Assembly: GCA_022826195.1 (NCBI GenBank)
Contig: JAJDVI010000017.1
Coordinates: 3,673-67,672, forward strand
Length of the DNA: 64,000 nucleotides
Direction: 5' to 3'
Origin: Acidobacteriota bacterium
GTDB taxonomy: Bacteria > Acidobacteriota > Vicinamibacteria > Marinacidobacterales > Marinacidobacteraceae
The first letter of the stretch is position 1. Each line of letters starts with the position of its first letter. Positions 18,119-62,965 of the stretch are shown piece after piece. Position numbers and translations under genes: made by a program. The notes under the pieces are model-generated. The model searched no databases and was not told the DNA's origin. It saw only the letters and a list, made by a program, of their open reading frames with translations.

Positions 18119-19015
18119 GTGACTATCGAGCTCAGGGAAAAGCCGCTGACCGCAAAAGATTTCAAGGGGAAGGTCGATCCCGATTGGTGTCCGGGCTGCG
18201 GCGACTTCGCCCTGCTGCGGGCCACCCAGATGTCGGTGGCCGAGCTGGGTCTGTCCCCGCACCAGATCGTGTGCGTGAGCGGCATCGGCTGTTCTTCGAA
18301 CTTTCCCGGATACTTCAACTCCTACGGCATGCACACCCTGCACGGGCGGGCGCTGGCGGTGGCGACCGGGGTGAAGATGGCCAACCAGACGCTCACCGTG
18401 CTCGTCACCGGCGGCGACGGCGACGGCTACGGCATCGGCGGAAACCACTTCACGCACACCGCGCGCCGCAACGTGGATCTCACCTACCTGGTGATGAACA
18501 ACCAGATCTACGGGCTCACCACCGGACAGGTCTCCCCGAGCAGCAGCCTGGGCATGAAGACCAAGAGCACCCCGTTCGGGAACATCGAGCGGCCGGTGAA
18601 CCCGATCACTTCGGCCATCATGAACGGCGCCACCTACGTGGGGCGCGGCTTCTCGGGCAACATCAAGCAGTTGGTCCGGCTCATCAAGGGCGCCATCGAG
18701 CACCCGGGTTTCGCGGTGATCGACGTCTTCAGTCCGTGCGTCACCTTCAACCGCGACAACACCTACGACTTTTTCCGGCAGCGGGTCGCCCCGCTGGAGG
18801 ACGAGGGGCACGACCCCTCCGACTGGAAGTCCGCGTGCGAACGGGCCATGGAGTGGGACGAGCGGATCTACACCGGGCTCTTCTACCAGGACCAGGCCGT
18901 CCAGTCGCTGCACGCGCGCGAGCCGATCCTGGACGGCGGGGCGCCCCCGGTGTCCCACGTTCCCGAGGCGATCACCCAGGAACAGCGCGACCGCATCGTC
19001 CGCCGGATGATGTAG
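18119..19015 (+). CDS. korB: 2-oxoglutarate/2-oxoacid:ferredoxin oxidoreductase, beta subunit (TPP-binding)
   Basis: 298 aa with WCPGCGDFALL and the TPP-binding GDGDGYGIGGNHF motif. Confidence 0.8.
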   Translation: MTIELREKPLTAKDFKGKVDPDWCPGCGDFALLRATQMSVAELGLSPHQIVCVSGIGCSSNFPGYFNSYGMHTLHGRALAVATGVKMANQTLTVLVTGGDGDGYGIGGNHFTHTARRNVDLTYLVMNNQIYGLTTGQVSPSSSLGMKTKSTPFGNIERPVNPITSAIMNGATYVGRGFSGNIKQLVRLIKGAIEHPGFAVIDVFSPCVTFNRDNTYDFFRQRVAPLEDEGHDPSDWKSACERAMEWDERIYTGLFYQDQAVQSLHAREPILDGGAPPVSHVPEAITQEQRDRIVRRMM

Positions 19016-38535: not shown

Positions 38536-38929
38536 TACCAACGTACTGATCTACGCAGCCTGCCCGCCTCCGAACGACGTGGCCAAAGCCGAGCGGGCCG
38601 CGGAACTGTTGAGGACCGCGGACATCGCGCTCTCGGCCCAGGTACTCCAGGAGTTCTACGTTCAGGCGACGCGCGCCACTCGCCCCGGCGCCCTGACCCA
38701 CGACGACGCCCGGCGGATGGTCAGGAGTCTCCAACGCTTTCCAGTACAGCCAGTGACCGCGCAAGTCGTGAACGACGCGTTGGCGCTTCGGGAGCGATTC
38801 CAGATCAACTACTGGGACGCCGCAATTCTGGCAGCAGCACGTGTCGCTGGCTGCGACACCGTGTACACGGAAGACCTCAACGACGGACAGGACTACGACG
38901 GTGTGCGCGTGGTGAATCCCTTCGCCTAG
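38522..38929 (+). CDS. vapC: PIN-domain ribonuclease toxin
   Basis: MRFVDTNVLIYAA...QINYWDAAILAAARVAGCDTVYTEDLN shows canonical PIN acidic residues (D5, E~43, D~98, D~118). Confidence 0.75.
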   Translation: MRFVDTNVLIYAACPPPNDVAKAERAAELLRTADIALSAQVLQEFYVQATRATRPGALTHDDARRMVRSLQRFPVQPVTAQVVNDALALRERFQINYWDAAILAAARVAGCDTVYTEDLNDGQDYDGVRVVNPFA

Positions 38930-41241: not shown

Positions 41242-41455
41242 GGGGCGGGAGAAGGGTGCGAAACCCGGTAGGCGGAACTCTACGTCGGGACCCGCGAGCG
41301 GTCGGGGAGCCCTCGGACACAATCCGGGGGCGCCACCCCCGCTCTTGAGCCCCACGCCGAGGCGGGAGCCACCTTTCCGGATGTGGTTGGAGCGTGCGCG
41401 GCGCGGAGCGCCGCGGTGCCGGTCTGGAGACCGGCGTTCCAAGCCGGCGCGCTGT

Positions 41456-43783: not shown

Positions 43784-43806
43784 GGCGGAAACTCTATGGC
43801 GGAACG

Positions 43807-46002: not shown

Positions 46003-46100
46003 GCGAGCGGGCGCCGGCTGCTCCTCCGGCTGGCCGCCGGCCAGCGGCGGCGCCGAGACCAGTCCGGCGGCGAGGGCGCCAAGCAGCCCGGGAACGCGAC

Positions 46101-48518: not shown

Positions 48519-48619
48519 GGCGACCGGCTCTCGGCGCGAGAAATCTCGAAAACCAATGCGAATTCTAGCGGAACGGCGCGATGCGCCGCCCTGCCGTTTG
48601 GGGCGGGGACGCGGTCCCG

Positions 48620-51019
48620 TCAGAACCGGAACAGACGGGTGAATTTGACGACCAGCGCGCGGTCGCTGAGCCCGGAGAGGCCGTCGTCGCCGTCGCGGTT
48701 CGTGCTGAACACCACGAACAGGTCGCTGCCCGGCGAGTACTCCCAGCGGTAGCGGATGTTCGCCGAGAAGAGCTGCGCCGCGGAGTTGTACTGGACGAGC
48801 GCCCCCAGGAAGCTGCGCGGCGACACGGTGTAGGTCGCGCGCAGCCGGCTGACCTGCGCCCGCACGCTGCCCTCGGGCACCTCGATCCAGTTGAGACTGA
48901 CGTTCGGCTCCAGGGAGAAGCGGGTGTTGAACTCCGCCCGTCCCCGGTAGCTCACCTGGCGCCGGGTGCCGCCGAAGAAGTCTCCGAACTCGTAGCGCAG
49001 GAACCCGGAGAACGGGCGGTGCGATCCCATCCGGACGCGGACGCCGGTGCGGGAGAAGCGGTAGTCGCCCGCGGGAACGTCGACCTCGCTGGAGAGGCTG
49101 AACCCTTCCAGGAGGTGCTCCTCGGTCACCGTGTGATCCACGAAGAGACGGTCGCTGCTCTCGAAGATGGTCTGGATCTGGAACATGTACTCGCGCGTCT
49201 CGGTCTCGCCGTCGGGACGGTCGTAGTTGTCCGCCTGCACCTGGAACTCGACCTGCCGGATCGACTCGATGCCGCGGGGACGCGGCGCGAACGTGACGCT
49301 TCCCCCGTCCTTCGTGAAGTCCCGGCGGCGGACGAAGCCCATTCCCGGATTGAAGTCCTCGCCGAGATACAGGCGCTCGGCGGAGATGTCGAGCAGATCG
49401 GTGTCGTAGCGGAACTGGCCCAGGTAGCTCGCCGCCTGGTGCCCGGTCTCGACGCCCGGCTCGCTCGTCGCCATGTAGAAGGTGTTGATGCGGATGTGGT
49501 CGGTCGGGTTGAAGTTCCCGTCCACCCCGTAGAGGGAGTTCGATCCGCTACCGTCGGCGGTCACGTTCCGGTGGGTCGCGATCACCCCGACGTTCGACCG
49601 CGAGAAGATGTCGCGCTTCATCCGGAAGGCGCTGAAGTTGGTGCTCTCGGCGTCCACTCCCTGCGCTTCGCCGGTCTGGATGTTCAAGAGCCCCATCTGG
49701 TAGGCGCCGGCCCGGCCGTGGAGGCGCGCGCCTCCCAGGATGGGTACCGCGCTCCCTCCCGAGATCCCGATCGAGCGGCTGAAGAACGGGATGGGGATGT
49801 CGCTTCCACCCCCGCCGCCGAACCCCCGGGCCTGCCGGCCGCCGAAGCCGAAGACCCCCTGCCCTTCGAGGAAGAACTCCCGCTTTTCCGGGTAGAACAG
49901 GCTGAAACGGCTCAGGTTGACCTGCGTCTCGTCGTCCTCCACCTGCGCGAAGTCGGTGTTCCAGGTGACGTCGGCGGTGAGCCCGTCGGTGACGCCGAAC
50001 TTGAAGTCGGCGCCGACGTCGCCGGACCACTCGTTCAGCCGGTCGTTCAGCGGGACGTGCGTCTGGGAGCCGATGGCGTACGGCTTCAGCTCCATCCGCC
50101 GCGAACCGGCGGGCGCCTCGAGACCCACGAGGGTCGCCGCGTTCGAGAGCCGTTCCAGTCCGTTCCGGCTGTACGCCTGGGGCGTCGGGGTCAGGAACGC
50201 CTGCTCGTTCCGGTGCTTGATGCGGCGCCGGAAGTTGATTCCCCAGAGCTGGGGCCCCCCGGCCGCGTAACGGAGCGAGCGGAAGGGAATCCGGATCTCC
50301 AGGGTGTAGCCGTCTTCGACGAGCCGGCTCTTCACCCACCAGACGGTGTTCCAGTCGCTGTTCGTGTTCCGCTCGTCGGTCACCTGGGCGTCGAAGAGCG
50401 CGCCCAGGGCGTTCGTGTGGAACAGGAAGCCGTTCCGCCGGTCGTAGAACGTGTCGATGATCACCGAGAAGCTGTCGCCCCAGTCGATGTTCCGCTGGTC
50501 GCGGCGCATCTCGTTGGCCATCAGCAGTTCCGGGTGGTCTTCTTCCAGCTCGGCGGCGATGTAGAGGCTGTCGGCGTCGTAGAGCACCCACACGCGGGTG
50601 GACTCCGAAACCGGGGCGCCCTCGTCGGGCTCCTGCTGCACGAATCCTTCCGCCGCCGGCACCTGGTCGTACACCGGGTCGTCGAGCACTCCGTCCACGG
50701 TGATCGGCTCGGAGAGGCGGAAGGCGCGGAGGGTGACCCGGCCGTCGGCGCCGCGGCTGACCGCCTCCCCTGCCGTCGGGGCCGGCGGACCGAGGATGGG
50801 GCTCTCCATCGCCGAACTGAGGTCCTGCTGCCCGTCGGCGAGCCGGCCGGCGCCGCGGCCCGGGATTCCCAGGTCGTCCTGACTGTCCTGAAGCCGGCGG
50901 TCCGCAGGCGGCCGAACGGGTCCATCGGGTGCGGCGAACGACGGGCCGGCGGCCAGCATCAGCAGGCTGGCGGCAGCAACGCCCGTCAAGAAAGAGGCAG
51001 TTTGCAAGCGGCGGGGCAC
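48620..51019 (-). CDS. Array copy E: same family (D–G subclade)
   Basis: 799 aa. GTG start. Signal MPRRLQTASFLTGVAAASLLMLAAGPSFA. ~90% identical to F over long stretches. C-terminus LVVKFTRLFRF. Confidence 0.65.
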   Translation of the reverse strand: MPRRLQTASFLTGVAAASLLMLAAGPSFAAPDGPVRPPADRRLQDSQDDLGIPGRGAGRLADGQQDLSSAMESPILGPPAPTAGEAVSRGADGRVTLRAFRLSEPITVDGVLDDPVYDQVPAAEGFVQQEPDEGAPVSESTRVWVLYDADSLYIAAELEEDHPELLMANEMRRDQRNIDWGDSFSVIIDTFYDRRNGFLFHTNALGALFDAQVTDERNTNSDWNTVWWVKSRLVEDGYTLEIRIPFRSLRYAAGGPQLWGINFRRRIKHRNEQAFLTPTPQAYSRNGLERLSNAATLVGLEAPAGSRRMELKPYAIGSQTHVPLNDRLNEWSGDVGADFKFGVTDGLTADVTWNTDFAQVEDDETQVNLSRFSLFYPEKREFFLEGQGVFGFGGRQARGFGGGGGSDIPIPFFSRSIGISGGSAVPILGGARLHGRAGAYQMGLLNIQTGEAQGVDAESTNFSAFRMKRDIFSRSNVGVIATHRNVTADGSGSNSLYGVDGNFNPTDHIRINTFYMATSEPGVETGHQAASYLGQFRYDTDLLDISAERLYLGEDFNPGMGFVRRRDFTKDGGSVTFAPRPRGIESIRQVEFQVQADNYDRPDGETETREYMFQIQTIFESSDRLFVDHTVTEEHLLEGFSLSSEVDVPAGDYRFSRTGVRVRMGSHRPFSGFLRYEFGDFFGGTRRQVSYRGRAEFNTRFSLEPNVSLNWIEVPEGSVRAQVSRLRATYTVSPRSFLGALVQYNSAAQLFSANIRYRWEYSPGSDLFVVFSTNRDGDDGLSGLSDRALVVKFTRLFRF

Positions 51020-51058
51020 GGGGAGTTTCGTCCGAACCGGGGGTAAAAACCGGCGCGG

Positions 51059-51088
51059 ACTATAGCCGCCCGGCCGCCGGGTTGCGAA
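51059..51088 (-). promoter_or_regulatory. Candidate promoter in the F/E spacer (-35 TTCGCA, 18-nt spacer, -10 TATAGT) driving copy E
   Basis: Read on the minus strand of the 120-bp spacer. A comparable TAGAAT hexamer sits ~45 nt upstream of copy D (plus 48562-48567). Confidence 0.2.
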
Positions 51089-51139
51089 CGCGTCTCGGGG
51101 GGCCCGGCAGAGCGGTGCCCGAGGGGATCCGGAACCCCG

Positions 51140-53533
51140 TCAGAACCGGAAGAGACGGGTGAATTTCACGACGACCGCGCGGTCGCTGAGCCCGGAGAGC
51201 CCGTCGTCCCCGTCGCGGTTCGTACTGAAGACCACGAACAGGTCGCTGCCGGGGGAGTACTCCCAGCGGTAGCGGACATTGGCCGAGATCAGTTGCGCCG
51301 CCGAGTTGTACTGGACGAGCGCGCCCACGAAACTGCGCGGCGAAACCGTGTAGCTGGCGCGGAGGCGGGTCACCTGCGCCTGGACGTCGCCCGCGGGCAC
51401 CGTGATCCAGTTCAGGCTGATGTTGGGCTCCAGCGAGAAGCGCTGGTTCAGCTCGACGCGTCCCCAGTACATGACCTCCTGCCGGGTGCCGCCGAAGAAG
51501 TCCCCGAACTCGTAGCGGAACATCCCCGAGAACCGGCGATGGGATCCCATCCGGATCCGCACCCCGCTGCGGGAGAACCGGTAGTCGCCGGCGGGAACCG
51601 CGACCTCGTCCGAGAGGTCGAAACCGGCGAGAAGACGCTCTTCGGTGATCGTGTGATCGAACATGAGGCGGTCGCTGCTCTCGAAGATGGCGCGCGCGTC
51701 GAACCGGTACTCGCGGGTTTCCATGGCGCCGTCCGGGCGGTCGTAGTTGTTCGCCTCCGCCTTGAACTCGAGCTGGCGGATCGCCTCGATCCCGCGGGGA
51801 CGCGGCGCCACCTGGAAGGAAGCGCCGTTCTTCGTGAAGTCCCGGCGGCGGACGAAGCCCATGCCCGGGTTGAAGTCCTCACCCAGGTAGAGCCGTTCCG
51901 CGGTGATGTCGATCAGGTCGGTGTCGTAGAGGAACTGGCCCATGTAGCTGGCGGCGGCGTGCCCCGTGTCCACGTCCGGCTCGCTGGTCGCCATGTAGAA
52001 GGTGTTGAAGCGGATGTAGTCCGTCGGGGCGAAGTTCCCGTCCACGCCGTAGAGGGAGTTGCCTCCGGAGCCGTCCGCGCTGACGTTCCGGTGGGTGGCG
52101 ATGACCCCGATGTTCGACCTCGAGAAGAGGTCGCGCTTCACGCGGAAGGCGCTGAAGTTGGTGCTCTCCACGTCGAGTCCGCCGACCTCGCCGGTCTGGA
52201 TGTTCATGAGGCCCATCTGGTAGGAGCCGGCGCGGCCGTGCATGCGGGCGCCGCCGAGAATCGGCACCGCGCTGCCCCCCGAGATCCCGATGGAACGGCT
52301 GAAGAACGGGATGGGAATGTCGGTCGGGCCGCCGAAGAAGCGGGTCTCCCGGCCGCCGAAGTCGAAGACCCCCTGTCCTTCGAGGAAGAACTCGCGCTTT
52401 TCCGGGTAGAAGAGGCTGAAACGGCTCAGGTTGACCTGGGTCTCGTCGTCTTCCACCTGCGCGAAGTCGGTGTTCCAGGTGACGTCGGCGGTGAGGCCGT
52501 CGGTAACGCCGAACTTGAAGTCGGCGCCGAGGTCGCCGGACCAGTCGTTGTGGATGTCGTTCAGGGGAACGTGGCTCTGGGAGCCGATCGCGTAGGGCTT
52601 GAACTCCATCCGCCGCGATCCGGCGGGCGCCTCGAGACCGACGAGCGTCGCCGCGTTGGAGAGCCGCAGCAGGGCGAACCGGTCGAACGCCTGGGGCGTC
52701 GGGGTGAAGAACACCTGTTCGTTGTTGTGCTTGATGCGGCGGCGGAAGTTGATCCCCCAGACCTGGGCTCCCCCCGCCGCGTAGCGGAGCGAGCGGAAGG
52801 GGATCCGGATCTCCACGGTGTAACGGTGGTCGAGACGCTGGGTGTTGACCCACCAGACCGTGTTCCAGTCGCTGTTGGTGTTCCGCTCGTCGGTCACCTG
52901 CGCGTCGAAGAGCGCGCCCTGCGCGTTCGTGTGGAACAGGAAGCCGTTTCGCCGGTCGTAGAAGGTGTCGAGGATGACCGAGAAGCTGTCGCCCCAGTCG
53001 ATGTTCCGCTGGTCGCGCCGCATCTCGTTGGCCATCAGCAGCTCGGGATGCTCCTCTTCGAGGTCGGCGGCGACGTAGAGGCTGTCCGCGTCGTAGAAGA
53101 CCCAGACGCGGGTGGACTCCGACGGCGGGGCGCCCTCGTCGGGCTCCTGCTGCGTGAATCCCTCCGCCGCCGGGACCTGGTCGTATACCGGGTCGTCGAG
53201 CACGCCGTCCACGGTGAGGGGCTCGGAGAGACGGAAGGCGCGGAGCGTCACCCGGCCGTCCGCGCCGCGGCTGACCGCCTCGTCGGCGGCGGGAGCCGGC
53301 GGCCCGAGGATGCGGTCCGCCATCGCCGAGTCGAGCGCCTGCTGGTTCGCGGCGAGCCTGCCGGAGCCGCGGGAGGAGGCGAGGCCGAGATCGTCCTGAT
53401 CGTCCTGGCGCCGCTCCTCCGCCGGGGAACCCGGTCCGTCCTGCGCGGCCGCGCCGCCGGCGGCCAGCACGGAGCCGGCCAGCAGTACGCCGAGAGCGGC
53501 GGCGACGCCGCCCGGCAACGCTCGGAAAGACAT
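51140..53533 (-). CDS. Array copy F: same family (D–G subclade)
   Basis: 797 aa. ATG start. Signal MSFRALPGGVAAALGVLLAGSVLAAGGAAAQ. C-terminus VVVKFTRLFRF. Confidence 0.65.
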   Translation of the reverse strand: MSFRALPGGVAAALGVLLAGSVLAAGGAAAQDGPGSPAEERRQDDQDDLGLASSRGSGRLAANQQALDSAMADRILGPPAPAADEAVSRGADGRVTLRAFRLSEPLTVDGVLDDPVYDQVPAAEGFTQQEPDEGAPPSESTRVWVFYDADSLYVAADLEEEHPELLMANEMRRDQRNIDWGDSFSVILDTFYDRRNGFLFHTNAQGALFDAQVTDERNTNSDWNTVWWVNTQRLDHRYTVEIRIPFRSLRYAAGGAQVWGINFRRRIKHNNEQVFFTPTPQAFDRFALLRLSNAATLVGLEAPAGSRRMEFKPYAIGSQSHVPLNDIHNDWSGDLGADFKFGVTDGLTADVTWNTDFAQVEDDETQVNLSRFSLFYPEKREFFLEGQGVFDFGGRETRFFGGPTDIPIPFFSRSIGISGGSAVPILGGARMHGRAGSYQMGLMNIQTGEVGGLDVESTNFSAFRVKRDLFSRSNIGVIATHRNVSADGSGGNSLYGVDGNFAPTDYIRFNTFYMATSEPDVDTGHAAASYMGQFLYDTDLIDITAERLYLGEDFNPGMGFVRRRDFTKNGASFQVAPRPRGIEAIRQLEFKAEANNYDRPDGAMETREYRFDARAIFESSDRLMFDHTITEERLLAGFDLSDEVAVPAGDYRFSRSGVRIRMGSHRRFSGMFRYEFGDFFGGTRQEVMYWGRVELNQRFSLEPNISLNWITVPAGDVQAQVTRLRASYTVSPRSFVGALVQYNSAAQLISANVRYRWEYSPGSDLFVVFSTNRDGDDGLSGLSDRAVVVKFTRLFRF

Positions 53534-53649
53534 GGGACGCGTGGGGTCGGAATCGAGGAAACCGGGACCAGTTTACGGAAAGCGGCCCTTCGGTCCCAAC
53601 GCGTTCCGGCTGCCCCCGGGAACGGTGGGATTCGGGGCGGGAGGTTCCC

Positions 53650-56091
53650 TCAGAACCGCATCAGGCGGGTGAACTTGACGACCAGCGCCCGGTCGGTGAG
53701 CCCGGAGAGGCCGTCGTCGCCGTCCCGGTTCGAACTGAAGACCACGAACAGGTCGCTGCCGGGGGAGTACTCCCAGCGGTAGCGGATGTTGGCCGAAAAC
53801 AGTTGCGCTGCCGAGTTGTACTGGACGAGCGCCCCCAGGAAGCTGCGCGGCGAGACGGTGTAGGTGGCGCGGAGGCGGCTCACCTGCGCCCGCACGTCCC
53901 CCGCGGGCAGCGTGATCCAGTTCAGGCTGACGTTCGGCTCGAAGGAGAACCGCTGGTTGACCTCGGCGCGTCCCCAGTACCCGACTTCCCGCCGGGTGCC
54001 CCCGAAGAAATCCCCGAACTCGTAGTTGAGCATTCCCGAGACCTTGCGGTGGGAACCCATCCGGACCCGCACCCCCGCCCGGGCGAACCGGTAGCTCCCG
54101 GCGGGCACCGCGACCTCGTCCGAGAGGTCGAACCCCTCGAGGAGATGTTCCTCGGTCACGTTGTAGTCGAGCATGAGGCGATCGCTGCTCTCGAAGATGG
54201 CGTTGGCCTCGAACTGGTACTCCCGGGTCTCGAGCTCGCCGCCGGGACGCTCGTAGTTGTTCGCCCGCGCCTGGAACTCGAGCTGGCGCACCGCCTCGAT
54301 GCCGCGGGGGCGGGGCGAGAACTGGACGGACCCGCTGTTCTTGGTGAAGTTCCGCCGGCGGAGGAAGCCCATCCCGGGGGTGAAGTCCTCGCCCAGGTAG
54401 AGCCGCTCCCCGGTCACGTCGATCAGGTCGGTGTCGTAGCGGAACTGGCCCATGTAGCTGGCGGCTTCATGCCCGGTCTCGATCCCGGGCTCGCTGGTCG
54501 CCATGTAGAAGGCGGTGATCCGGAGATGCTGGGTGGGGTTGAAGTTCCCGTCCACCCCGTAGAGGGAGTTGGCTCCCGTCCCGTCGGCGTTGATGTTCCG
54601 GTGGGTCGCGATGACGCCGATGTTGGACCGCGAGAAGAGGTCCCGCTTGACCCGGAAGGCGCTGAAGTTCGTGCCCTCGTAGTCGAGCCCCGGCGCCGTG
54701 CCGGTCTGGATGTTCATGAGCCCCATCTGGTAGGCGCCGGCCCGGCCGTGGAGCCGGGCGCCGCCGAGGATCGGCACCGCGCTGCCCCCCGAGATCCCGA
54801 TGGAGCGGCTGAAGAACGGAATGGGAGCGTCGGCGGAGCCCCCGCCCCCCCAGGCCCGGGTCTGCCGGCCCCCGAAGTCGAACACCCCCTGCCCCTCGAG
54901 GAAGAACTCGCGCTTTTCCGGATAGAAGAGGCTGAAACGGCTCAGGTTGACCTGGGTCTCGTCGTCCTCCACCTGCGCGAAATCGGTGTTCCAGGTGACG
55001 TCGGCGGTGAGCCCTTCGGTGACGCCGAACTTGAAATCGGCGCCGACGTCGCCGGACCACTCGTTCAGGGTGTCCCGCAGGGGAGCGTGCGTCTGCGAAC
55101 CGATGGCGTAGGGCTTCAGTTCCATCCGCCGCGAACCGGCGGGCGCCTCGAGCCCGACGAGCGTCGCCGCGTTCGAGAGCCGGTTCAGCCCGTTCATGTT
55201 GTAGGCCTGGGGCGTCGGGGTGAGGAAGGCCCGCTCGTTCGTGTGCTTGATGAGGCGGCGGAAGTTGATCCCCCAGAGCTGCGGCCCGCCCGCCGCGTAG
55301 CGGAGCGACCGGAACGGGATTCGCATCTCCATGGTCCAGCCGTGTTCGAGGCGCTCGGTCCGCACCCACCAGACGGTGTTCCAGTCGGAGTTCGTGTTCC
55401 GCTCGTCGGAGACCTGGGCGTCGTAGAGCGCGCCCACCGCGTTCGTGTGGAAGAGGAAGCCGTTCCGGCGGTCGTAGAAGGTGTCGAGGATGACCGAGAA
55501 GCTGTCTCCCCAGCCGATGTTCCGGTGGTCGCGCCGCATCTCGCCCGCCCGGAGCAGCTCCGGGTGGTGTTCGTCGAGATCCGCCGCGATGTAGAGGTGT
55601 TCCGCGTCGTAGAGCACCCAGACGCGGGTGGACTCGGAGACCGGAGCGCCCTCGACGGGTTCCTGCTGCACGAAGCCCCCGGCGGCCGGGATCTGGTCAT
55701 AGACGGGGTCGTCGAGCACGCCGTCCACGGTGAGCGGTTCGGACAGCCGGAAGGCGCGGAGCGTCACCCCGCCGTCGGCGTCCCGGCTGACCGCTTCGTC
55801 CGCCGCCGGAGCGGGCGGTCCCAGGATGCGCTCGGCGATGGAAGAACTGAGGTCCTGCTGGCTCGCGGCGAGCCGGCCCGAGCCGCGGGAGGAGGAGAGG
55901 CCCAGATCGCCCTGGCCGCCCTGCGCCCCGGCTTCGGCGGCCGGCGCCGCCGGCTCGTCCTGCGCGGGGGCCGCTCCGGCGGCCAGGAGCGCGCCCACCA
56001 GGAGCACGGCCCCGCCGGCGCGCCTCCGCCCCTCCGGACGGATCAGGGAACGATCAGCCAATGCACCCAGCCTCCAGCAACTCCGAATCAC
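53650..56091 (-). CDS. Array copy G: same family (D–G subclade), first gene of the array
   Basis: 813 aa. GTG start. Long n-region then AVLLVGALLAAGAAPAQ. C-terminus LVVKFTRLMRF. Confidence 0.6.
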   Translation of the reverse strand: MIRSCWRLGALADRSLIRPEGRRRAGGAVLLVGALLAAGAAPAQDEPAAPAAEAGAQGGQGDLGLSSSRGSGRLAASQQDLSSSIAERILGPPAPAADEAVSRDADGGVTLRAFRLSEPLTVDGVLDDPVYDQIPAAGGFVQQEPVEGAPVSESTRVWVLYDAEHLYIAADLDEHHPELLRAGEMRRDHRNIGWGDSFSVILDTFYDRRNGFLFHTNAVGALYDAQVSDERNTNSDWNTVWWVRTERLEHGWTMEMRIPFRSLRYAAGGPQLWGINFRRLIKHTNERAFLTPTPQAYNMNGLNRLSNAATLVGLEAPAGSRRMELKPYAIGSQTHAPLRDTLNEWSGDVGADFKFGVTEGLTADVTWNTDFAQVEDDETQVNLSRFSLFYPEKREFFLEGQGVFDFGGRQTRAWGGGGSADAPIPFFSRSIGISGGSAVPILGGARLHGRAGAYQMGLMNIQTGTAPGLDYEGTNFSAFRVKRDLFSRSNIGVIATHRNINADGTGANSLYGVDGNFNPTQHLRITAFYMATSEPGIETGHEAASYMGQFRYDTDLIDVTGERLYLGEDFTPGMGFLRRRNFTKNSGSVQFSPRPRGIEAVRQLEFQARANNYERPGGELETREYQFEANAIFESSDRLMLDYNVTEEHLLEGFDLSDEVAVPAGSYRFARAGVRVRMGSHRKVSGMLNYEFGDFFGGTRREVGYWGRAEVNQRFSFEPNVSLNWITLPAGDVRAQVSRLRATYTVSPRSFLGALVQYNSAAQLFSANIRYRWEYSPGSDLFVVFSSNRDGDDGLSGLTDRALVVKFTRLMRF

Positions 56092-56168
56092 GAAACAACG
56101 AGGAGTGTACCGGGAATGTTCCGTGCTGCGGGACCCCGGATCGCCCCGCCCGCGGTAGATTGGTCACC

Positions 56169-56769
56169 GATGCGGGCCGGTGGGGCGGTGACCGGAGCCT
56201 TGGTCCATTACGGGCGGGCCGAGCTGGTCACGGTCGCGGTGGAAGACGGCGCTCCCCGGCTCCTCGATCGGCGGCGCGTCGAGCTGATCGGCGAAGGGCT
56301 TCCGGGCGCGCCCTACCACCACGAGGCCCTGAAGTTGGACATCGGGGCGGCAACCGCCCTGGTGGATCGGGTGCGGCGGTCGGTGGCGGAACGCGCGGGC
56401 GCGGCGATCTCCACCATGTTGGCGGCGCATCGCGCCCGGGTGCTCATCCTGCCGGCGAGTCCGTACGACCGCCTGCCCGACTCGCTGGCGGAGGTGCTGA
56501 GCTCGCGTCCCCTGACCCGTGCCGCCGACGGCATGCTGTATCGCGAGTCTCTGGCTCAGGCCGCGTCCGCCCTCGGAATGGACGTCCGGAGGTACCCGCG
56601 CAACGCCGATCCGGCGCTGCTCGCGGCCGAAGCGATGGAAGTGGACCTCGCGGGGGTCCGCGCGCTGGTCGCCCGGTTCGGCCGGGAGGCGGGAACGCCG
56701 TGGCGGAAGGACCACAAGCGGGCGGCCGCGGCCGCCCTCAGCGTCCTCGGGCGCCAGATACGTCCGTAG
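56169..56769 (+). CDS. Hypothetical protein (its 3' end is partially duplicated at 60340-60492)
   Basis: 200-aa ORF with high GC3. It is divergent from array copy G. It lies in a frame that continues from a long antisense ORF, but this 600-nt part covers otherwise unassigned DNA. The C-terminal ...GREAGTPWRKDHKRAAAAALSVLGRQIRP is echoed by the remnant downstream. Confidence 0.45.
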
Positions 56770-56806
56770 CGCCGGGCGGCGCCGCGGCCCCGCGATCGGA
56801 GGCTCC

Positions 56807-57940
56807 TCACCAGGCCGCGCCGCGCGCGTAGCGGCGCCCGTTCAACTGCTTCCCGATGAACGTCGGCCGCACCAGGTGCCGGTACGCCACCAGCAGCAGG
56901 GCGATGGCGGTCACCACCACGAGAGCGAGCTTCACGATTCCCGGCAGGGGCGCGTCCCTGAGAAGAAGGGGCAGCAGCATGACCACCGGCACGTGGACGA
57001 TGTAGATCCAGTAGGAGGCGTCCGCCAGGTACCGCCAGCGGCGGCTCGGCCGGTCCAGGTAGCGGAGGAACAGCCCGAACAGGGCATAGGCCAGCAGCCC
57101 CATGGCCAGCGCGAGAAAGACGACCGTCCCCAGGTGGTGGACCACCGAAGTCCCGGTGCAGATGCGGTCCGGGCCGGCGTGGCAGCCGGTGTCGGCGAAG
57201 TGGCGGTACGCGAAGAAGCACGCGATTCCCGCGGCCAGGTGCGTCCAGGCGGGCTGCCTGAACCCCCCGAGCGTTTCGCGGCGGTGGAACAGCAGCCACC
57301 CGAACCCGAAGAACAGACCCCACAGCGCCAGCAGGCGCAGGGGCGGGAACGGGCCGGCGTAGTAGTCGATTTCCCACGACTGCATCCGGTACAGGATCGC
57401 CGCCGCGCCCAGGACCAGCGCCGCGATGCCTCCCCGGTGCACCAGGCGCGCGAAGAGATCCAGCGCCCGGACCCGCAGGCGCTCCGGGATGCGAACGGCA
57501 AGGAGCCACGCCCCGGCGGCGATCACGCAGAGGATCATCAGGTGATAGAGGAACCACAGGTGCATGAACAGGTAGCGGCTGCCCTGCGCCCACGTCTGTT
57601 CGGCCAGGCCGTAGCTGAACCCCTGCGGAACCGGGCTGAACCGGGAGAGGAAGGGCAGGATGAAGTACATCGTGACCCCCACGAGGGGCCAGGCCACCAG
57701 GAACGGCACGCCGATCCGGCTCCAGCGCTGGCGCAGGAACCCCCGGACGCCGTGCCGGTGAACCAGGTACGCCCCGAAGAACCCGGCGATCGCGAAGAAG
57801 ACCGGGAGCTGGAAGACGCGGATGAAGACGATCACCCAGCGAACGAGGACGTCGGCCGCGGCATCCTGGTACGGCCATCCCGCGAACACGGTGGGTTCGT
57901 AGCTCATCGCGGCGTGCCGAACCACCCCGAGCGTCATCAT
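56807..57940 (-). CDS. Acyltransferase family 3 (OpgC/OatA-like) membrane protein
   Basis: Starts MMTLGVVRHAA (ATG pair at 57935-57940). ~10 TM helices and conserved His/Arg positions of the acyl_transf_3 family. The ORF-track N-terminal 344 aa are an arginine-rich antisense artefact. Confidence 0.65.
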   Translation of the reverse strand: MMTLGVVRHAAMSYEPTVFAGWPYQDAAADVLVRWVIVFIRVFQLPVFFAIAGFFGAYLVHRHGVRGFLRQRWSRIGVPFLVAWPLVGVTMYFILPFLSRFSPVPQGFSYGLAEQTWAQGSRYLFMHLWFLYHLMILCVIAAGAWLLAVRIPERLRVRALDLFARLVHRGGIAALVLGAAAILYRMQSWEIDYYAGPFPPLRLLALWGLFFGFGWLLFHRRETLGGFRQPAWTHLAAGIACFFAYRHFADTGCHAGPDRICTGTSVVHHLGTVVFLALAMGLLAYALFGLFLRYLDRPSRRWRYLADASYWIYIVHVPVVMLLPLLLRDAPLPGIVKLALVVVTAIALLLVAYRHLVRPTFIGKQLNGRRYARGAAW

Positions 57941-57996
57941 GGCCGCGCGCAGCCGGTCCAGCGCGTGGTACCGGGGAACGGAGACCCGGCCGCCGG

Positions 57997-60012
57997 TCAA
58001 GAGGACGAGTTTCCGGCGCCGTTCGTTGCCGCGGCCGCGTGCGTTCGGCGGCCGAGGACCCGGATGTTGAAGCCGACGGGCCGCATGGTCGGGAACGACC
58101 GCACCCGGAGCGCATGGTCGGGACGGAGCGGTTCCAGAGCGAGTTCCCGCAGGATCGTCGCCATGGTGAGGCCGAGCTGGACCGGGACGAGACCGGCGCC
58201 GAGACACCGGTGGTTGCCAGTCCCGAAGGGGGCGTAGGCGCCGCGCTGCCGGTGTTCGGCGCGGACGTCGGTGTAGCGCTCGATGTCGAAGCGCTCCGGC
58301 TCGGGAAAGTACTCCTCGAGTGCGTGTCCCACCGACGTCCCGACCATGACCAGGGTCCCGGCAGGTATCCGGTATCCCGCGAACTCGAAGGAGTTGGCCG
58401 TCGTCCGCAGGACGGCCGGTGACACCGGATGGAGCCGCAGGGTCTCCATCGCCACGCGCCGCGAGACGTCCAGCCGCCGCAGCCCCTCGCCGGGCGTCAG
58501 GCCCTGCTCGAAGAGGGCGTCGGCTTCGGCGGTCATGCTTTCCATGAGCTCCGGGCGCTTCAGGACGTTTTCGAGCATGAACGCGCAGGTGCTCGCCGTG
58601 GTGTCCAGCCCGACCAGGTAGGGCGCCAGCACGGTCAGGTTCAGGTTGGTCTCGGGAAGGAGCTGGGGATCGGCCTCCCGCAGATCCAGCATGAGGTCGA
58701 TGAAGTCCGGGCCCGCCCGCCGGGGGCCGACCTTCCGCTTGTGCTCGAGGACCGCGCCGGCCAGCTCCTCGGCCCGCGCGCGGGCGCGCCGCATTCGCGG
58801 GAGTTTCATGACGCGCGGGAACACCGACGCACTGATGAGCAGCCCGCCCAGGAGCGTGCTCAGGTCGTTCGTGTAACCGCCGGGTGAGTAGCCCGCCATC
58901 ACGTAGCCCATCTGCTCGGCGATGACGTGCCGGATTCTCGGCAACACCTCGAACCGCTTCCCGACCGGCCACTTCGCGATCTCGTCGCGGGTGATCTCGA
59001 CGACCTCCACCCCCCGCTCCTCCACGACGCGGGCCGCGTATCCCCGGGCCTAGGCCCTCCGGGTGGTGACGTGGTCCACGCCGTCCATGGTCACGATGGA
59101 GCGGGACGCGTCCATCGCGTTATGGAAGTTCGCCATCGGCTCGAGCGACCGGAAGACCCTCTTCCCGTGCGAAGCCAGGAAGTTGGCCGCCTCCGGCCCC
59201 GCGAGGCACACGAACCGGCGTCCGGGAGCGCGGATCCGGAAGACCGGGCCCAGGTCGCGGTACTGGCGGACCAGGAATGCCGAGAGTCCCCGGCTCATGG
59301 CCAGGCCGTTGCCCAGGAGCGGCAGGCCCGGAGCGACCGGGATCTCTTTCTGGGGCCCCGGCGCCGCGGCCGCTGCCGCGGGCGCCTCGCGTCCCTCGAT
59401 CGCCTGGCTCATCGTCCGGCCGATCAGGTCGAGCTTCGTGAGCAGGTCGATGCGGTCCTGGACCTGCGCCCGCTCCTCCGCCGACAGGATGGTGCGGAAC
59501 ACCCCGCAGGCGCCCGCCAGCGCGATCATCGCGATGTCGCGCGGATCCGGGATGTCGTCGCTGAACAGCACCCGCATGATGCGCAGCCGCGCTTCCTCGA
59601 TCTGCTGCCCGTCCGCGGTCGGGTAACGCCGCGACCGGGACACCGAGGGGGCGAGCGACAGGAGCCCGTGCGCCTCGGATCGCAGGATGCCGCGCTCGAT
59701 CAGGCGACCCAGCGCGTCGCTGCGGATCCGGTCGCCCCGCCCCGCGGTCCGGTCGAGCCAGTAGCGCGTGTCGCGCCACTGGCTCTCGCCGGCGATCTCG
59801 GCCAGCGTCGGATCGAGAATGTCGTCGCCGAGCGGCGTGGGGTCCACGAGCATGAGCCGCTCGAGATCCGTTTCGATGCGCTTTTGGAGCGCGAGATCCA
59901 TCAGCACCGCTCCGGCGAGGGCCAGGTTGAGCGAGTCCGGCGGCAGGCTTCCCAGGTCCCCCTGTCCCTCGTCCAGGACGAGCAGCAGAATCTCCTCGGC
60001 GAACGTCAGCAT
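57997..60012 (-). pseudogene. GPP34/GOLPH3-like domain fused to cytochrome P450, interrupted by one in-frame TAG (59050-59052)
   Basis: The N-terminal ~255 aa from ATG 60012 (RBS GGAGGAGGGA) read MLTFAEEILLLVLDEGQGDLGS...ALAGAVLMDLAL...ARLRIMRVLFSD, which is GPP34-family-like. After an Ala/Pro linker comes a P450 N-terminus (PGLPLLGNG...). The same frame continues after a TAG into the P450 C-terminal half (ORF 57997..59025), which has the heme loop FGTGNHRCLGAG. The two ORF-track entries 59050..60108 and 57997..59025 are in the same frame. Confidence 0.55.
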
Positions 60013-60339
60013 TGGCCGCTCCCTCCTCCGGTCGAGGCGTGATCCACCGCCGGCGCCACGTACGGCAACTCGCGCGCCGCCAACATCACGGAGCCCGCGC
60101 GCGCCCACCCCCTGCGCGACCGGCGCCGGGGCAGCGCCGTCAACGTGCTAGTCGGCATTGGCGGCTGGCAGCGATTGTCCGCGGACAATGGCACTCTTGG
60201 GAACGGAAGGAGTCCGGAAAGCGCCGTTACGGCGATCTGTGACGGCATGGTGTCCCGTCTAACTTACAGAAAGGTGACAACAGGCAGAAGTTGTTGTCAA
60301 GCAACACCCGGAACCGGGCCGCCGGGCCTCTGCCGCCGA

Positions 60340-60492
60340 CGGCGTGCGCGAACCTCTGGCTCAGGCCGCGTCCGCACCCGGAGGCCGGACCGCTCACCGC
60401 CGGTCGGCCGGGAGGCGGGAACGCCCTGGCGCAAGGGCCGCGAGCTGGCGGCCGCGGCCCTGAGCGTCCTCGGGCGTCAGGTTCGCCGGTAG
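60340..60492 (+). repeat. Degenerate partial copy of the 3' end of gene 56169..56769
   Basis: TCTGGCTCAGGCCGCGTCCGC (21/21), CGGCCGGGAGGCGGGAACGCC(G/C)TGGCG and AGCGTCCTCGGGCG(C/T)CAG are shared with 56541-56769. A ~110-nt central part is replaced, and the frame is disrupted. Confidence 0.5.
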
Positions 60493-60505
60493 GGCCTGCG
60501 GAACC

Positions 60506-60757
60506 TCACGGCATCTCGTCTTCCGGTACGGGAGGCTGCCCGCCGTCGCGCCGGAGGAGTCGGCGCGCCAGGTCGATGTCGGCGCCGGCCGCCCGGCCGG
60601 TGAAGAACTCGGCGGTCTTCAACGCGGAGAGCTTCTCCGCCACCGCGGTCGTCACGAACTGGTTGATGCTCGTCCCGTCAGCCCGGCTGACCTCGGCAAC
60701 GGCCGCTTTGAGCGACGCCGGCAGGCGCAGGGGATAGGTACTGAGTTGCTTCTTCAT
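60506..60757 (-). CDS. Antitoxin, RHH/HicB-family-like DNA-binding protein
   Basis: Starts MKKQLSTYPLRLPASLKAAVAEVSRADGTSINQFVTTAVAEKLSAL, a ribbon-helix-helix. The ATG overlaps the stop of the upstream PIN gene (ATGA). Confidence 0.6.
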   Translation of the reverse strand: MKKQLSTYPLRLPASLKAAVAEVSRADGTSINQFVTTAVAEKLSALKTAEFFTGRAAGADIDLARRLLRRDGGQPPVPEDEMP

Positions 60758-61176
60758 GACGGGAGCCTCCTCAAGGCATCCTGTGGCGAGAGCAGGGCGA
60801 TGCTGAAGTCTTCGGGAACCTGACCGAAGTCGCGACGATTGAAAGTGACCAGCGCGTCGGCCCGGCCGTTGATTGCGGTCTCCAACACCATCTCGTCCGC
60901 GGGATCGCGCAGCTGGGGTCGCCACAGAAACCGGGTTTCCACCGGCTCCGCAACCGCGCACAGCGCGTTCACGATGGCTTCCACTTCGGTCCCACTCAGT
61001 CCCGACACAATCCGTTGTGCCGGGTCGCGGCAAACAGCCTCGTATTCCAACACGAGCGGTACGGACGCCAGCAACACGAACGCCCCGCTCAGGGCTCGGT
61101 CCAACAAGCTGGCCGATGCACCGTGTGGACTCCGCAGGGCGGCGACGATGACGTTGGTGTCCAGCACGTAGCGCAT
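60754..61176 (-). CDS. PIN-domain toxin (PIN_3-like)
   Basis: MRYVLDTNVIVAAL...VTFNRRDF. Acidic PIN residues are present. The toxin precedes the antitoxin (reverse order). Confidence 0.65.
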   Translation of the reverse strand: MRYVLDTNVIVAALRSPHGASASLLDRALSGAFVLLASVPLVLEYEAVCRDPAQRIVSGLSGTEVEAIVNALCAVAEPVETRFLWRPQLRDPADEMVLETAINGRADALVTFNRRDFGQVPEDFSIALLSPQDALRRLPS

Positions 61177-61391
61177 CACATATGATGTCATATTGTATCA
61201 GATATTAATCCAACTCCAGACATAGCTGGAATGTGCCGAGGAGCAGGGAGTTCCAAACCTTGCGGGCCATCAAGGAGAGCTTTCCGGTTCCGCGGCGCTC
61301 TCGCGCCGCGGGTGCCGGCTGAAGCCGGCGCTCCAAGCCGTTTCGCTGCCTTGTAGGGGGCGGCGTTCCCGAACCGTCCCCCGGGGGGGAA

Positions 61392-61424
61392 AGTGTGAAA
61401 GGGGGGGCTCGCCCCCCCTTTCAC
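61392..61424. repeat. Perfect GC-rich hairpin TGTGAAAGGGGGGG-ctcg-CCCCCCCTTTCACA
   Basis: 14-bp perfect inverted repeat with a 4-nt loop, read directly. It is not followed by a U-tract on either strand. Confidence 0.5.
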
Positions 61425-61515
61425 AAAAAGACAGCGCAAAATCGGAACTCGCCGAAGCGCGCCCAGCGCGCGAGGGAGTTTCGATTTCCGGCACGAAGTG
61501 CCGGGCGGTTCGGCA

Positions 61516-61576
61516 GGGGGCTGGCTTCCGCAACCGGCCTCGCAACTGTCCCGTTCGCGGAAGCCAGCCCCCTGTC
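61516..61576 (-). terminator. Long stem-loop immediately 3' of tRNA-Val (18-bp perfect inverted repeat CAGGGGGCTGGCTTCCGC ... GCGGAAGCCAGCCCCCTG, 25-nt loop)
   Basis: It begins ~8 nt after the tRNA CCA end on the transcribed strand. It is a likely tRNA 3' processing/termination structure. Confidence 0.35.
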
Positions 61577-61584
61577 GGACCGCA

Positions 61585-61659
61585 TGGTGCGCGGTGCGGG
61601 ATTCGAACCTGCGACCCCCTGCGTGTAAGGCAGGTGCTCTTCCGCTGAGCTAACCGCGC
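61585..61659 (-). tRNA. tRNA-Val (anticodon TAC)
   Basis: The minus-strand sequence GCGCGGTTAGCTCAGCGGAAGAGCACCTGCCTTACACGCAGGGGGTCGCAGGTTCGAATCCTGCACCGCGCACCA folds as a cloverleaf. It has a 7-bp acceptor stem, D-loop AGCTCAGCGG, anticodon loop CTTACAC, T-arm GGTTCGAATCC and an encoded CCA. Confidence 0.85.
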
Positions 61660-61726
61660 AATCTCGGCCGGGATTCTCGCAGCAACCCGGGACGCGGGCG
61701 GTCCCCATGCCTTGGGAATTGCGATA

Positions 61727-61741
61727 CATTGCAGTGCAATG
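61727..61741. promoter_or_regulatory. 15-bp perfect palindrome CATTGCAGTGCAATG in a low-GC island upstream of the RND operon (candidate repressor operator)
   Basis: It sits in the only AT-rich stretch (~61710-61770) of the tRNA/RND intergenic region. It extends imperfectly to ACATTGCA-G-TGCAATGc. Confidence 0.35.
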
Positions 61742-61873
61742 CATACTGACACTAGGTATGAAATGTCATGGGATCCGGCCCGCGGTCACCGATGAAGAGT
61801 CCGGCGTCCCACTGCGTAGTTCTCAGGCAGATTCACCGGAACTCCGGAGGATGCACATCCGTTAGGAGAGAGC

Positions 61874-62965
61874 ATGAAGCGAAAGTCCCTGCTCCTGTTG
61901 CTGGCCGCCGCGACCCTCGGCATCGCCGCGGCCGGCCTGTTCGTCGTCCCGAACCTGACCGGGGTCAGCGAAGCTCGCGAGATCACCGACGAGCCCGGAG
62001 AGGCGGCGCCGACCCCGGTGAGCGTCGCGGAAGCGCGGCTCGGCCCGGTGGCCCTCCACCTCACCACCACCTCCGCGGTGGAGGCCGAGCGCACCGCCCA
62101 GGTGCTCTCCGAGACCTCGGGCGTCCTGACCGAGATCGGCGTCCGCGAAGGCGATTCGGTGGCCGCGGGTGAGGTCCTCGCGCGGGTGGACGCCCGCGAG
62201 CGGCGGCTCGCCTTCGAGCAGGCGGAACTGCGGCTCTCGCGCGCCGAGTCGGAACTCTCGCGCCAGCAGCGGGCGTTCGAGCAGGACCTGGTGGCCGAGT
62301 ACGAATACGAAAAGGCGCGCTTCGACCGGGACCTGGCCGCCTCCGAACTGGAGACGGCCCGGCTGGAGCTGGAACGGACCGAGATCCGGGCGCCCTTCGC
62401 GGGCAAGGTGACGGAAGTGATGCTGGTCGAGGGCGGCCGGCTCGAGCCCGCCCAGCACCTGCTGACGCTCGCCGACTTCAACACCCTGGTCGCCCGGCTC
62501 TACGTGCCGGAACGGGACGTGGCGGGACTCGCGCCCGGCCAGCCCGCCGTGGTCCGTCCGGAATCCGACGCGACCGGAACCGGAATCACCGGGCGCATCC
62601 GGGAAGTCAGCCCGATCGTGGATCCGGGCACCGGCACCGTGAAGGTGACGGTGGCGCTGCCGGCGCCGGCGGGCACGGTCGTCCGGCCCGGTTCCTTCGC
62701 CCGGGTCGTCATCGAGACCGGCCGGCGCGAGAACGCCGTGCTGGCGCCCAAGCGGGCCATCGTCCAGGGCGAGACCGGCTCCCATGTCTTCGTGGTCGAG
62801 GGCGGCAAGGCCGTCCGCCGCGAGGTGACCGTGGGGGTGGAGATAGAGAGCCCCGAGGGCGCGCTGATCGAGCTCGCCGACGGGCTGGAGCCCGGGGCGC
62901 GGATCGTGGTCGCCGGCCACGGAGCGCTCAATCCGGGGGCCGCGGTCGAGATCCTGAACAACTGA
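61874..62965 (+). CDS. RND efflux periplasmic adaptor (membrane fusion protein, HlyD-like)
   Basis: Signal/anchor MKRKSLLLLLAAATLGIAAAGLF. Coiled-coil region (LRLSRAESELSRQQRAF...). β-barrel/lipoyl motifs IRAPFAGKVTEV and TGTVKVTVALP. Confidence 0.8.
   Translation: MKRKSLLLLLAAATLGIAAAGLFVVPNLTGVSEAREITDEPGEAAPTPVSVAEARLGPVALHLTTTSAVEAERTAQVLSETSGVLTEIGVREGDSVAAGEVLARVDARERRLAFEQAELRLSRAESELSRQQRAFEQDLVAEYEYEKARFDRDLAASELETARLELERTEIRAPFAGKVTEVMLVEGGRLEPAQHLLTLADFNTLVARLYVPERDVAGLAPGQPAVVRPESDATGTGITGRIREVSPIVDPGTGTVKVTVALPAPAGTVVRPGSFARVVIETGRRENAVLAPKRAIVQGETGSHVFVVEGGKAVRREVTVGVEIESPEGALIELADGLEPGARIVVAGHGALNPGAAVEILNN

Follow-up and report, generated by a model that had tools for sequence, protein, structure and literature searches.

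Long GPP34 proteins (GPP34_L), in which a GPP34 domain (PF05719) is followed by a cytochrome P450 (PF00067) in a polypeptide of about 665 residues, were described in January 2025 as a family confined to the genomes of sponge symbionts and expressed in situ (Ferreira et al. 2025, Microbiome 13:4; PMC11706023). The P450 domain is present in 656 of 663 long GPP34 proteins, and GPP34_L is carried by 92.6% of sponge Gemmatimonadota, by 85.5% of sponge Acidobacteriota and by 50–100% of symbiont genomes in many phyla, with one to six GPP34 copies per genome (PMC11706023). This ranks GPP34_L among the most consistent genomic markers of sponge symbiosis. A few short proteins (GPP34_S) are nested in the GPP34_L clade, a sign that the P450 domain has been lost repeatedly, and the family was proposed, without experiment, to act as a secreted effector that binds phosphatidylinositol 4-phosphate (PI4P) and blocks phagosome maturation (PMC11706023). 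Here we describe a GPP34_L gene in a 64,000-nucleotide stretch of an Acidobacteriota genome (contig JAJDVI010000017.1, positions 3,673 to 67,672; hereafter the window), whose reading frame is interrupted by a single amber codon. In our best reading of the sequence, this TAG appears to be a real and very young null allele; it does not reflect recoding and is probably not an error. We hold with good confidence the overall explanation of a two-gene operon with a recent CAG-to-TAG null allele, taken together with the putative cassette mechanism set out below.

The gene occupies 57997–60012 on the minus strand and comprises 671 codons plus a stop, running from ATG 60012–60010 to TGA 57999–57997 behind a strong Shine-Dalgarno-like motif, GGAGGAGGGAG (60029–60019). 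Sequence and translation agree on exactly one in-frame stop, the TAG at 59052–59050 (codon 321, context RRA*ARGY). The GPP34 domain spans residues 1–208 (59389–60012) according to Pfam, an AlphaFold2 (AF2) model and Foldseek, and matches PF05719 over residues 5–206 (E 1.6e-39; 136.5 bits against a cut-off of 29.1; profile positions 2–199 of 201). An Ala/Pro-rich linker (residues 209–222; 59347–59388), variable in the alignment and disordered, with a predicted local distance difference test (pLDDT) score below 50 at residues 210–218, leads to the Pro-rich hinge IPVAPGLPLLGNG. The P450 domain follows at residues 223–671 (58000–59346), an E-class domain most like bacterial CYP51 by Pfam, PDB search and Foldseek. 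Its PF00067 match is weak 5' of the stop (residues 226–319, about 95 residues, E 9e-4) and strong 3' of it (E 5.4e-44). The P450 motifs are complete and invariant across orthologues, namely the I-helix VGLDTTAS (GLDTT), ETLR, PERF and the haem-ligand loop FGTGNHRCLG (58198–58227), which lies intact 3' of the stop and contains Cys603 (F596, G597, G599, H601, C603 and L604 are all invariant). The frame through the haem domain is thus broken at one point, codon 321 in helix C.

The frame is far beyond chance, because the joined protein shares 97% of its residues with P0001, an intact database protein of 671 residues; its identity to the product of the nearest allele, L026, is 99%. The two domains share one frame, one start and one linker, and the window gene belongs to the published GPP34_L family, a fusion that is known and abundant. 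A search with the joined protein recovered more than 120 clusters of intact GPP34-P450 proteins of 655–700 residues, and 174 genomic relatives emerged from a scan in which each species was represented by one genome. The first-pass annotation of this stretch, made from the letters alone, had named both domains and placed the TAG correctly. It overestimated the GPP34 domain at about 255 residues instead of about 208, and it counted 342 residues after the TAG; the frame does continue, with 350 open codons, the lower figure being the count from the first GTG. It did not recognise the architecture, which is that of GPP34_L.

The origin of the TAG is evident from the orthologues. Gln stands at codon 321 in all 12 orthologues of a 13-sequence alignment, and the codon is CAG in all five DNA copies from close relatives (L001, L026 and L090–L092), so that the amber codon (59050–59052) derives from Gln by a C-to-T change. 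L026 is the nearest to the window, at 98.3% nucleotide identity, followed by L001 at 97.1%; L090–L092 belong to the same study but to different specimens or runs, are identical to L026 and carry the intact allele. The nearest alleles are intact at 671 residues, and the window allele is split by the point mutation alone. When polarised with L026 and L001, the window branch shows nine synonymous changes, no missense change, one nonsense change and no indels, and the adjoining acyltransferase gene differs from that of L026 by four synonymous substitutions and one non-synonymous. We read these changes as strong purifying selection on the gene until the stop arose and no decay since.

A sequencing or assembly artefact, with an intact CAG gene in the organism, is suggested by the single base that separates the window from every relative, by the lack of downstream decay and by the source, a metagenome-assembled contig. 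The lack of decay, however, is equally expected of a very recent real mutation. Moreover, a second assembler, Logan, yields a contig from run SRR16351684 (L089) that is 100% identical to window positions 58645–61338 over 2,694 bp, TAG included, which excludes an assembler artefact, and the exact 320-residue truncated product is on record from both NCBI/ENA (on a contig of 75,034 bp) and Logan. A base-call artefact is unlikely with Illumina data; the related sponge study combined Illumina reads with MEGAHIT assembly, where consensus substitution errors are rare (PMC9531527). Altogether we regard an artefact as very unlikely. Two points count against a real allele: the Logan contig probably stems from the same reads as the metagenome-assembled genome (MAG), so that a systematic read error could be common to both, and the TAG is known from assembled contigs, not from read-level population frequencies. 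So far the TAG allele has been seen in one specimen, and the six other contigs of its 90%-identity cluster are intact. A scan of JGI metagenomes for CGGAGGGCCYAGGCCCGGGG, as a sign of independent TAG alleles, returned six chance matches in unrelated DNA, all with C, and was uninformative.

TAG is an ordinary terminator in the window. It ends true genes there, among them that of a SpoIIE-type phosphatase before CysS (674–676) and that of the beta subunit of a 2-oxoacid:ferredoxin oxidoreductase (19013–19015), and it closes about 12 of the 43 genes recognised by a frame plot of codon-position GC content. This recognition relied on a filter of GC1>GC2, as read-through pairs selected on GC3 only gave many antisense false positives. 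No suppressor tRNA is encoded in the 64-kb window, where the only tRNA is tRNA-Val, and no orthologue has TAG at the site. On these three grounds, drawn from the window and the orthologues, a genome-wide reassignment of the amber codon was rejected. The same observations bear on the idea that this one codon is read through by a suppressor tRNA or a near-cognate tRNA-Gln, leaving the gene functional at a possibly reduced level. The ancestral residue is Gln, the commonest residue to be placed at UAG through near-cognate decoding, and the downstream frame is perfectly kept. But TAG terminates ordinary genes in the same window, a suppressor tRNA is lacking within the 64 kb, the absence of TAG from all orthologues shows that read-through is not programmed, and a basal level would yield only a small fraction of full-length protein. 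We consider read-through very unlikely and the least probable of the explanations. The ranking in the first-pass annotation therefore needs partial revision: orthologues are unsplit and carry Gln/CAG at the site, in keeping with its option of a recent inactivation as opposed to an old pseudogene, and read-through was rightly put last, but the sequencing error that it had named as the other main option is now unlikely given the identical Logan contig.

A Dcm-type mutational hotspot was considered as the cause of the substitution and dropped. The mutated C is the inner C of CCAGG in relatives, a setting comparable to the classic lacI amber hotspots and reminiscent of hotspots of 5-methylcytosine deamination, but without a significant excess here. 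C-to-T changes at inner CCWGG cytosines number 4 of 115 on the window side and 0 of 104 on the L026 side, no significant departure from the background of roughly 2%. With an observed/expected ratio of 0.94, CCWGG shows no depletion in the window, and no C5-methyltransferase motif was found there. As a separate observation, CTAG is strongly under-represented in the whole window, with 30 occurrences against 119 expected under a maximal-order Markov model. The CCTAGG that arose through the mutation is thus unusual for this genome.

What the stop would do to the locus follows from its position. In the structure model, codon 321 falls within helix C of the P450 (residues 312–324). The predicted product consists of the GPP34 domain, the linker and a 98-residue P450 stub unable to hold haem, and a restart at the GTG codons just past the TAG would give a P450 without its N-terminal third. 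The next gene on the same strand (56807–58000) encodes an integral-membrane O-acyltransferase of the Acyl_transf_3 family (397 residues; PF01757, E 1.1e-23), whose TTG start overlaps the P450 stop as TTGA. Overlaps of this kind are a classic arrangement for translational coupling. Because translation of the acyltransferase begins at the overlap with the normal stop, 1 kb beyond the TAG, premature termination should lower it as well, and the coupled expression of the enzyme is probably reduced by polarity. We thus infer a very young null allele, or a conversion from the long to the short form in progress, and neither a recoded gene nor an old pseudogene.

The second of these possibilities raises the question of whether the stop is adaptive, producing from GPP34_L a protein of the GPP34_S type that keeps a GPP34-only function. 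The 320-residue product retains the whole GPP34 domain, the nesting of GPP34_S in the GPP34_L clade reported by Ferreira et al. speaks for repeated P450 loss, and the 3' end of the P450 is gone in a separate clade of nine Gemmatimonadota loci. However, the stop has been seen once, in a single specimen whose 90%-identity cluster is otherwise intact, the 98-residue P450 stub is likely unstable, and the event is too recent to show selection in either direction. An adaptive stop is therefore improbable in our estimation, although the allele may offer a snapshot of the long-to-short transition. As a null allele it is ordinary in itself, a young loss-of-function variant in the symbiont population of one sponge specimen, of use at most for being a natural knock-out or for illustrating the change from long to short GPP34.

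The intact family is of wider interest. Of the 174 relatives, 80 loci were kept, with labels that range over Gemmatimonadota, Acidobacteriota, Chloroflexota, Latescibacterota, Binatia and Nitrospirales, and further include Rhodothermales, Spirochaetia, Alpha- and Gammaproteobacteria and Trueperaceae. Most of them belong to recognisable series of sponge MAGs. Many are "jk18x...bins" MAGs of Kelly et al. 2022, which were obtained from Caribbean Ircinia sponges (PMC9531527), and the closest contigs share the sample codes of that study; the SB0661 bins are symbionts of I. ramosa (PMC11706023). The names of the nearest relatives' MAGs strongly suggest that the window contig, too, comes from a sponge symbiont. 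In comparison with the GPP34_L proteins of Ferreira et al., the window gene has the identical architecture, occurs in the same host phyla and has its closest relatives in the Ircinia MAG series, and it differs in being split by the nonsense codon.

The closest structural relatives of the N-terminal domain are GOLPH3 and Vps74, peripheral-membrane adaptors that hold enzymes at the membrane. The AF2 model of the GPP34 domain is of high quality (pLDDT 92, predicted TM-score (pTM) 0.90) and has the helical fold with β-hairpin of these proteins, which account for all eight significant Foldseek matches in the PDB (among them 3KN1, 9QPQ and 2ZIH; E 3e-7 to 3e-5, query TM-score (TMq) 0.63–0.76), the next match lying at E 0.27. 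The full-length model has a pTM of 0.67 against 0.90 for the domain alone, which together with the disordered linker suggests two rigid domains on a flexible tether. Eukaryotic GOLPH3/Vps74 bind PI4P through a (sulfate) pocket formed by W81, R90, R171 and R174, and in GOLPH3 the W81A/R90A double mutation alone abolishes binding (PMC2806290). A profile alignment to 9qpq/3kn1 places P24 at W81, A33 at R90, D94 at R171 and R97 at R174, so that one of four residues is kept; Ala33 is Ala in at least 90% of the family, and the R171 column is Asp or variable. As three of the pocket residues are replaced and the double mutation is sufficient to abolish binding, canonical PI4P recognition by the fusion family is unlikely, and the phosphoinositide binding implied by the first-pass annotation finds no support. 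This comparison bears on function, not on membership of the GPP34 family. The family has a basic motif of its own, the invariant V124-S-R-S-R-R-Y-P131 (VSRSRRYP) by the hairpin region. Thus, whereas the fold and the Pfam family are those of GOLPH3/Vps74, identity is only about 20%, W81, R90 and R171 are replaced, and VSRSRRYP belongs to the fusion family. Moreover, GOLPH3/Vps74 bind the tails of glycosyltransferases, whereas the GPP34 domain here is covalently fused to its enzyme.

For the P450, the best matches in both sequence and structure are bacterial and human CYP51. The best PDB sequence match is the CYP51 of Methylococcus (E 8e-37), and Foldseek aligns the domain with CYP51 at 25% identity and a target TM-score (TMt) of 0.83; CYP184A1, CYP102, CYP505 and CYP3A are close behind, at most two orders of magnitude away. 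Methylococcus capsulatus CYP51 (PDB 6MCW, 7JJ1, 7SNM) is a sterol 14-alpha-demethylase and itself a natural P450 fusion (CYP51-ferredoxin), and it shares with the GPP34_L P450 the eukaryote-like Pro-rich N-terminal hinge. Its fusion partner is a redox domain, unlike that of GPP34_L, and it carries the CYP51 HTS signature where the fusion has a generic GLDTT. An assignment to CYP51 was rejected, given 25% identity (below the 40% threshold) and an I-helix that reads VGLDTTAS against FAGHHTSS in the Methylococcus enzyme. We class the P450 as a lipid-type E-class enzyme in a family of its own. The GPP34 domain directly precedes the Pro-rich hinge IPVAPGLPLLGNG, the place that the transmembrane anchor takes in eukaryotic P450s.

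The genes that adjoin the fusion were surveyed in 82 loci by tblastn with representative partners. An Acyl_transf_3 gene lies directly downstream on the same strand in 32 loci (31 in the census and L010, where the contig ends inside a partial copy), and the pairing that the first-pass annotation had pointed out is therefore both real and conserved. This group includes every member of the clade of at least 64% identity that has downstream sequence. In 19 loci the adjoining same-strand gene is a sulfotransferase (Sulfotransfer_3, PF13469, E 6.6e-34), often in two or three tandem copies. In a further 13 loci the adjoining same-strand gene encodes an EcKL/APH-type kinase (PF01636, E 5.6e-16; PF02958, E 3.7e-11) and has an MFS exporter gene (E 1e-45) before or after it, an arrangement that precomputed Pfam hits on independently called genes confirm. 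The remaining 18 have none of the three partner types. The type of partner tracks the fusion-protein phylogeny, whose clades each cover several phylum labels. Other flanking genes, such as an RND pump and a DUF5916 array, are kept among the nearest relatives only. Since the partner alone is conserved more widely, the conserved unit pairs the P450 with a hydroxyl-directed transferase and, as its phylogeny indicates, moves horizontally among sponge symbionts.

The window acyltransferase matches PF01757 with 84.3 bits (cut-off 31; positions 2–325 of 326), and its best NCBIfam match is OpgC/MdoC (NF003014, E 5.7e-43). Like OpgC/MdoC, it belongs to the AT3-only (acyltransferase-3) O-acyltransferases, multi-pass membrane proteins of about 400 residues with no SGNH domain; unlike them, it scores only 147.5 bits, far under the equivalog cut-off of 338, and an assignment as an OpgC/MdoC orthologue was rejected. 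NolL and the macrolide O-acyltransferases AcyA/MdmB are further AT3-only enzymes. Among solved structures, the sulfotransferase partners are closest to 2z6v and 2zq5, which we take to be mycobacterial Stf9 and Stf1, and the kinase partner has no solved-structure relative at E <= 0.01. A direct precedent exists in the cyp128-stf3 operon of Mycobacterium tuberculosis, in which menaquinone, an isoprenoid lipid of the membrane, is hydroxylated and then sulfated, giving an envelope lipid that affects virulence (PMC6469627). Here, too, a P450 and a sulfotransferase share one operon, and the product, sulfomenaquinone S881, modulates host interaction at the envelope (PMC6469627). However, CYP128 (cyp128A1) has no GPP34 domain, and the window cassette has an acyltransferase in place of the sulfotransferase. 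The 2025 GPP34_L paper covers neither the flanks of the genes nor the PI4P-pocket residues, the words sulfotransferase and acyltransferase are absent from it (PMC11706023), and a search for later papers on the topic brought up none. Both the clade-specific pairing with O-acyl-, sulfo- and phospho-transferases and the loss of the PI4P pocket across the fusion family thus appear new to the literature.

We propose that in intact relatives the GPP34 domain, in the position of an N-terminal membrane anchor, would localise the P450 at the cytoplasmic face of the membrane or on a membrane-bound partner, and that this tethering would not need the canonical PI4P pocket. The P450 would hydroxylate a lipophilic molecule, the adjacent enzyme would conjugate the new hydroxyl with an acyl group here, or with sulfate or phosphate in sister clades, and the conjugated product would be exported or inserted in the envelope. 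Such a membrane-tethered mechanism of hydroxylation followed by conjugation seems to us plausible, though slightly short of an even chance. Several points tell against it. The substrate and the role of the membrane tether follow from gene order and domain position only, and the published hypothesis for the family is a different one. Nine of the 18 partnerless loci belong to the 3'-truncated clade and one lies on a short contig, which leaves the others unexplained by either circumstance. OpgC, the best named relative of the acyltransferase, succinylates periplasmic glucans, so that the acceptor need not be the P450 product. Finally, the cassette has no adjoining gene for a redox partner (ferredoxin or reductase).

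The hypothesis of Ferreira et al. holds that GPP34 proteins are secreted into sponge cells and prevent phagosomes from maturing by binding the host PI4P on them, the P450 being accessory. The restriction of the family to sponge symbionts and its expression in situ (PMC11706023), the binding of PI4P by eukaryotic GOLPH3/Vps74 (PMC2806290) and the conserved fold are in line with this. Set against them, three of the four pocket residues are not kept, and the protein begins with helix 1 of the GOLPH3 fold, not with a signal peptide. The gene is translationally coupled to that of an integral-membrane acyltransferase or, at other loci, shares operons with MFS exporters and with transferases that depend on 3'-phosphoadenosine-5'-phosphosulfate (PAPS) or ATP, which are enzymes of the bacterial cytoplasm. 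A P450, moreover, needs haem and a redox chain. We therefore rate the secreted effector as rather unlikely. The pairing with partners and the lost pocket together favour the cassette model over a secreted PI4P effector and redirect the hypothesis towards an intracellular pathway of lipid or metabolite modification. For the family as a whole, we tentatively suggest, with more reserve than for the mechanism itself, that GPP34_L is the oxygenase half of mobile sponge-symbiont cassettes for hydroxylation, conjugation and in part export, with a pocketless GOLPH3-like tether and with products that would be esters (AT3), sulfates (Stf-like) or phosphates (EcKL/APH with an MFS pump). If so, the acylated, sulfated or phosphorylated lipids and sterol-like compounds typical of sponges may have a bacterial source, or a bacterial modifier, in this family, and the window allele would be a natural knock-out of one such cassette.

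Several further observations concern the family. Two GPP34-P450 paralogues occur in one genome in the MAG jk18x27bins.12 (L034 and L071) and in one Dehalococcoidia MAG (L069 and L085). Paralogues within a genome sometimes differ in their partner type, in agreement with the one to six copies per genome of Ferreira et al. In the nine Gemmatimonadota genomes of the 3'-truncated sister clade (L031, L034–L040 and L043), homology to the family ends after HRCLGSG, at about residue 607 (for example at L039:11820-12331), and an unrelated sequence that they have in common (SPVVRI.AGNRLTTYRAARSAFPAVGLD...) takes the place of the P450 3' end. The clade lacks a following acyltransferase gene, and several of its contigs stop 130–1000 nt from the junction. 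An IS110-like transposase lies near the junction in L039, and an Rfam scan of the junction found no match to a group II intron or similar element. The clade appears to represent an older, inherited 3' truncation or rearrangement of the fusion gene. Among the loci of the kinase type, L093 and L095 have several sulfatase genes (PF00884) within a few kb of the fusion, and in L093 transposase fragments directly flank the fusion gene.

In the window itself, a scan of the cassette for promoters and terminators gave nothing useful. The cassette is bracketed by two direct repeats in the same orientation (plus strand), with 80–89% block identity and both ending in TAG. Copy A (56520–56773) is the 3' end of a convergent gene (about 56116–56769) whose product has about 212 residues and no Pfam family. 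Copy B (60330–60496) lies upstream of the fusion gene; it is degenerate, lacks about 80 internal nucleotides and resembles a scar left by recombination when the cassette was acquired. The bracketing repeats fit acquisition by recombination. Directly downstream of the cassette lie seven tandem DUF5916/CBM9-type paralogues of about 800 residues each (38929–56091, minus strand), four of them 81–83% identical to each other and three at about 45–47%; this array is shared by the nearest relatives L001, L002 and L026 and is not conserved at other fusion loci. Between the cassette and tRNA-Val (61585–61659, minus strand), a PIN-domain toxin gene (60754–61191) is accompanied by a small upstream partner (the pair at 60506–61191, minus strand), and the same pair is present in L001 and L089–L092. 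Identity to L026 is 96–100% over the cassette, the PIN pair and the tRNA region (56830–61900), and falls to about 80–86% in the DUF5916 array, from about 56830 down to 53650. This step in identity suggests a recent recombination or sweep of the cassette region between more divergent genomes.

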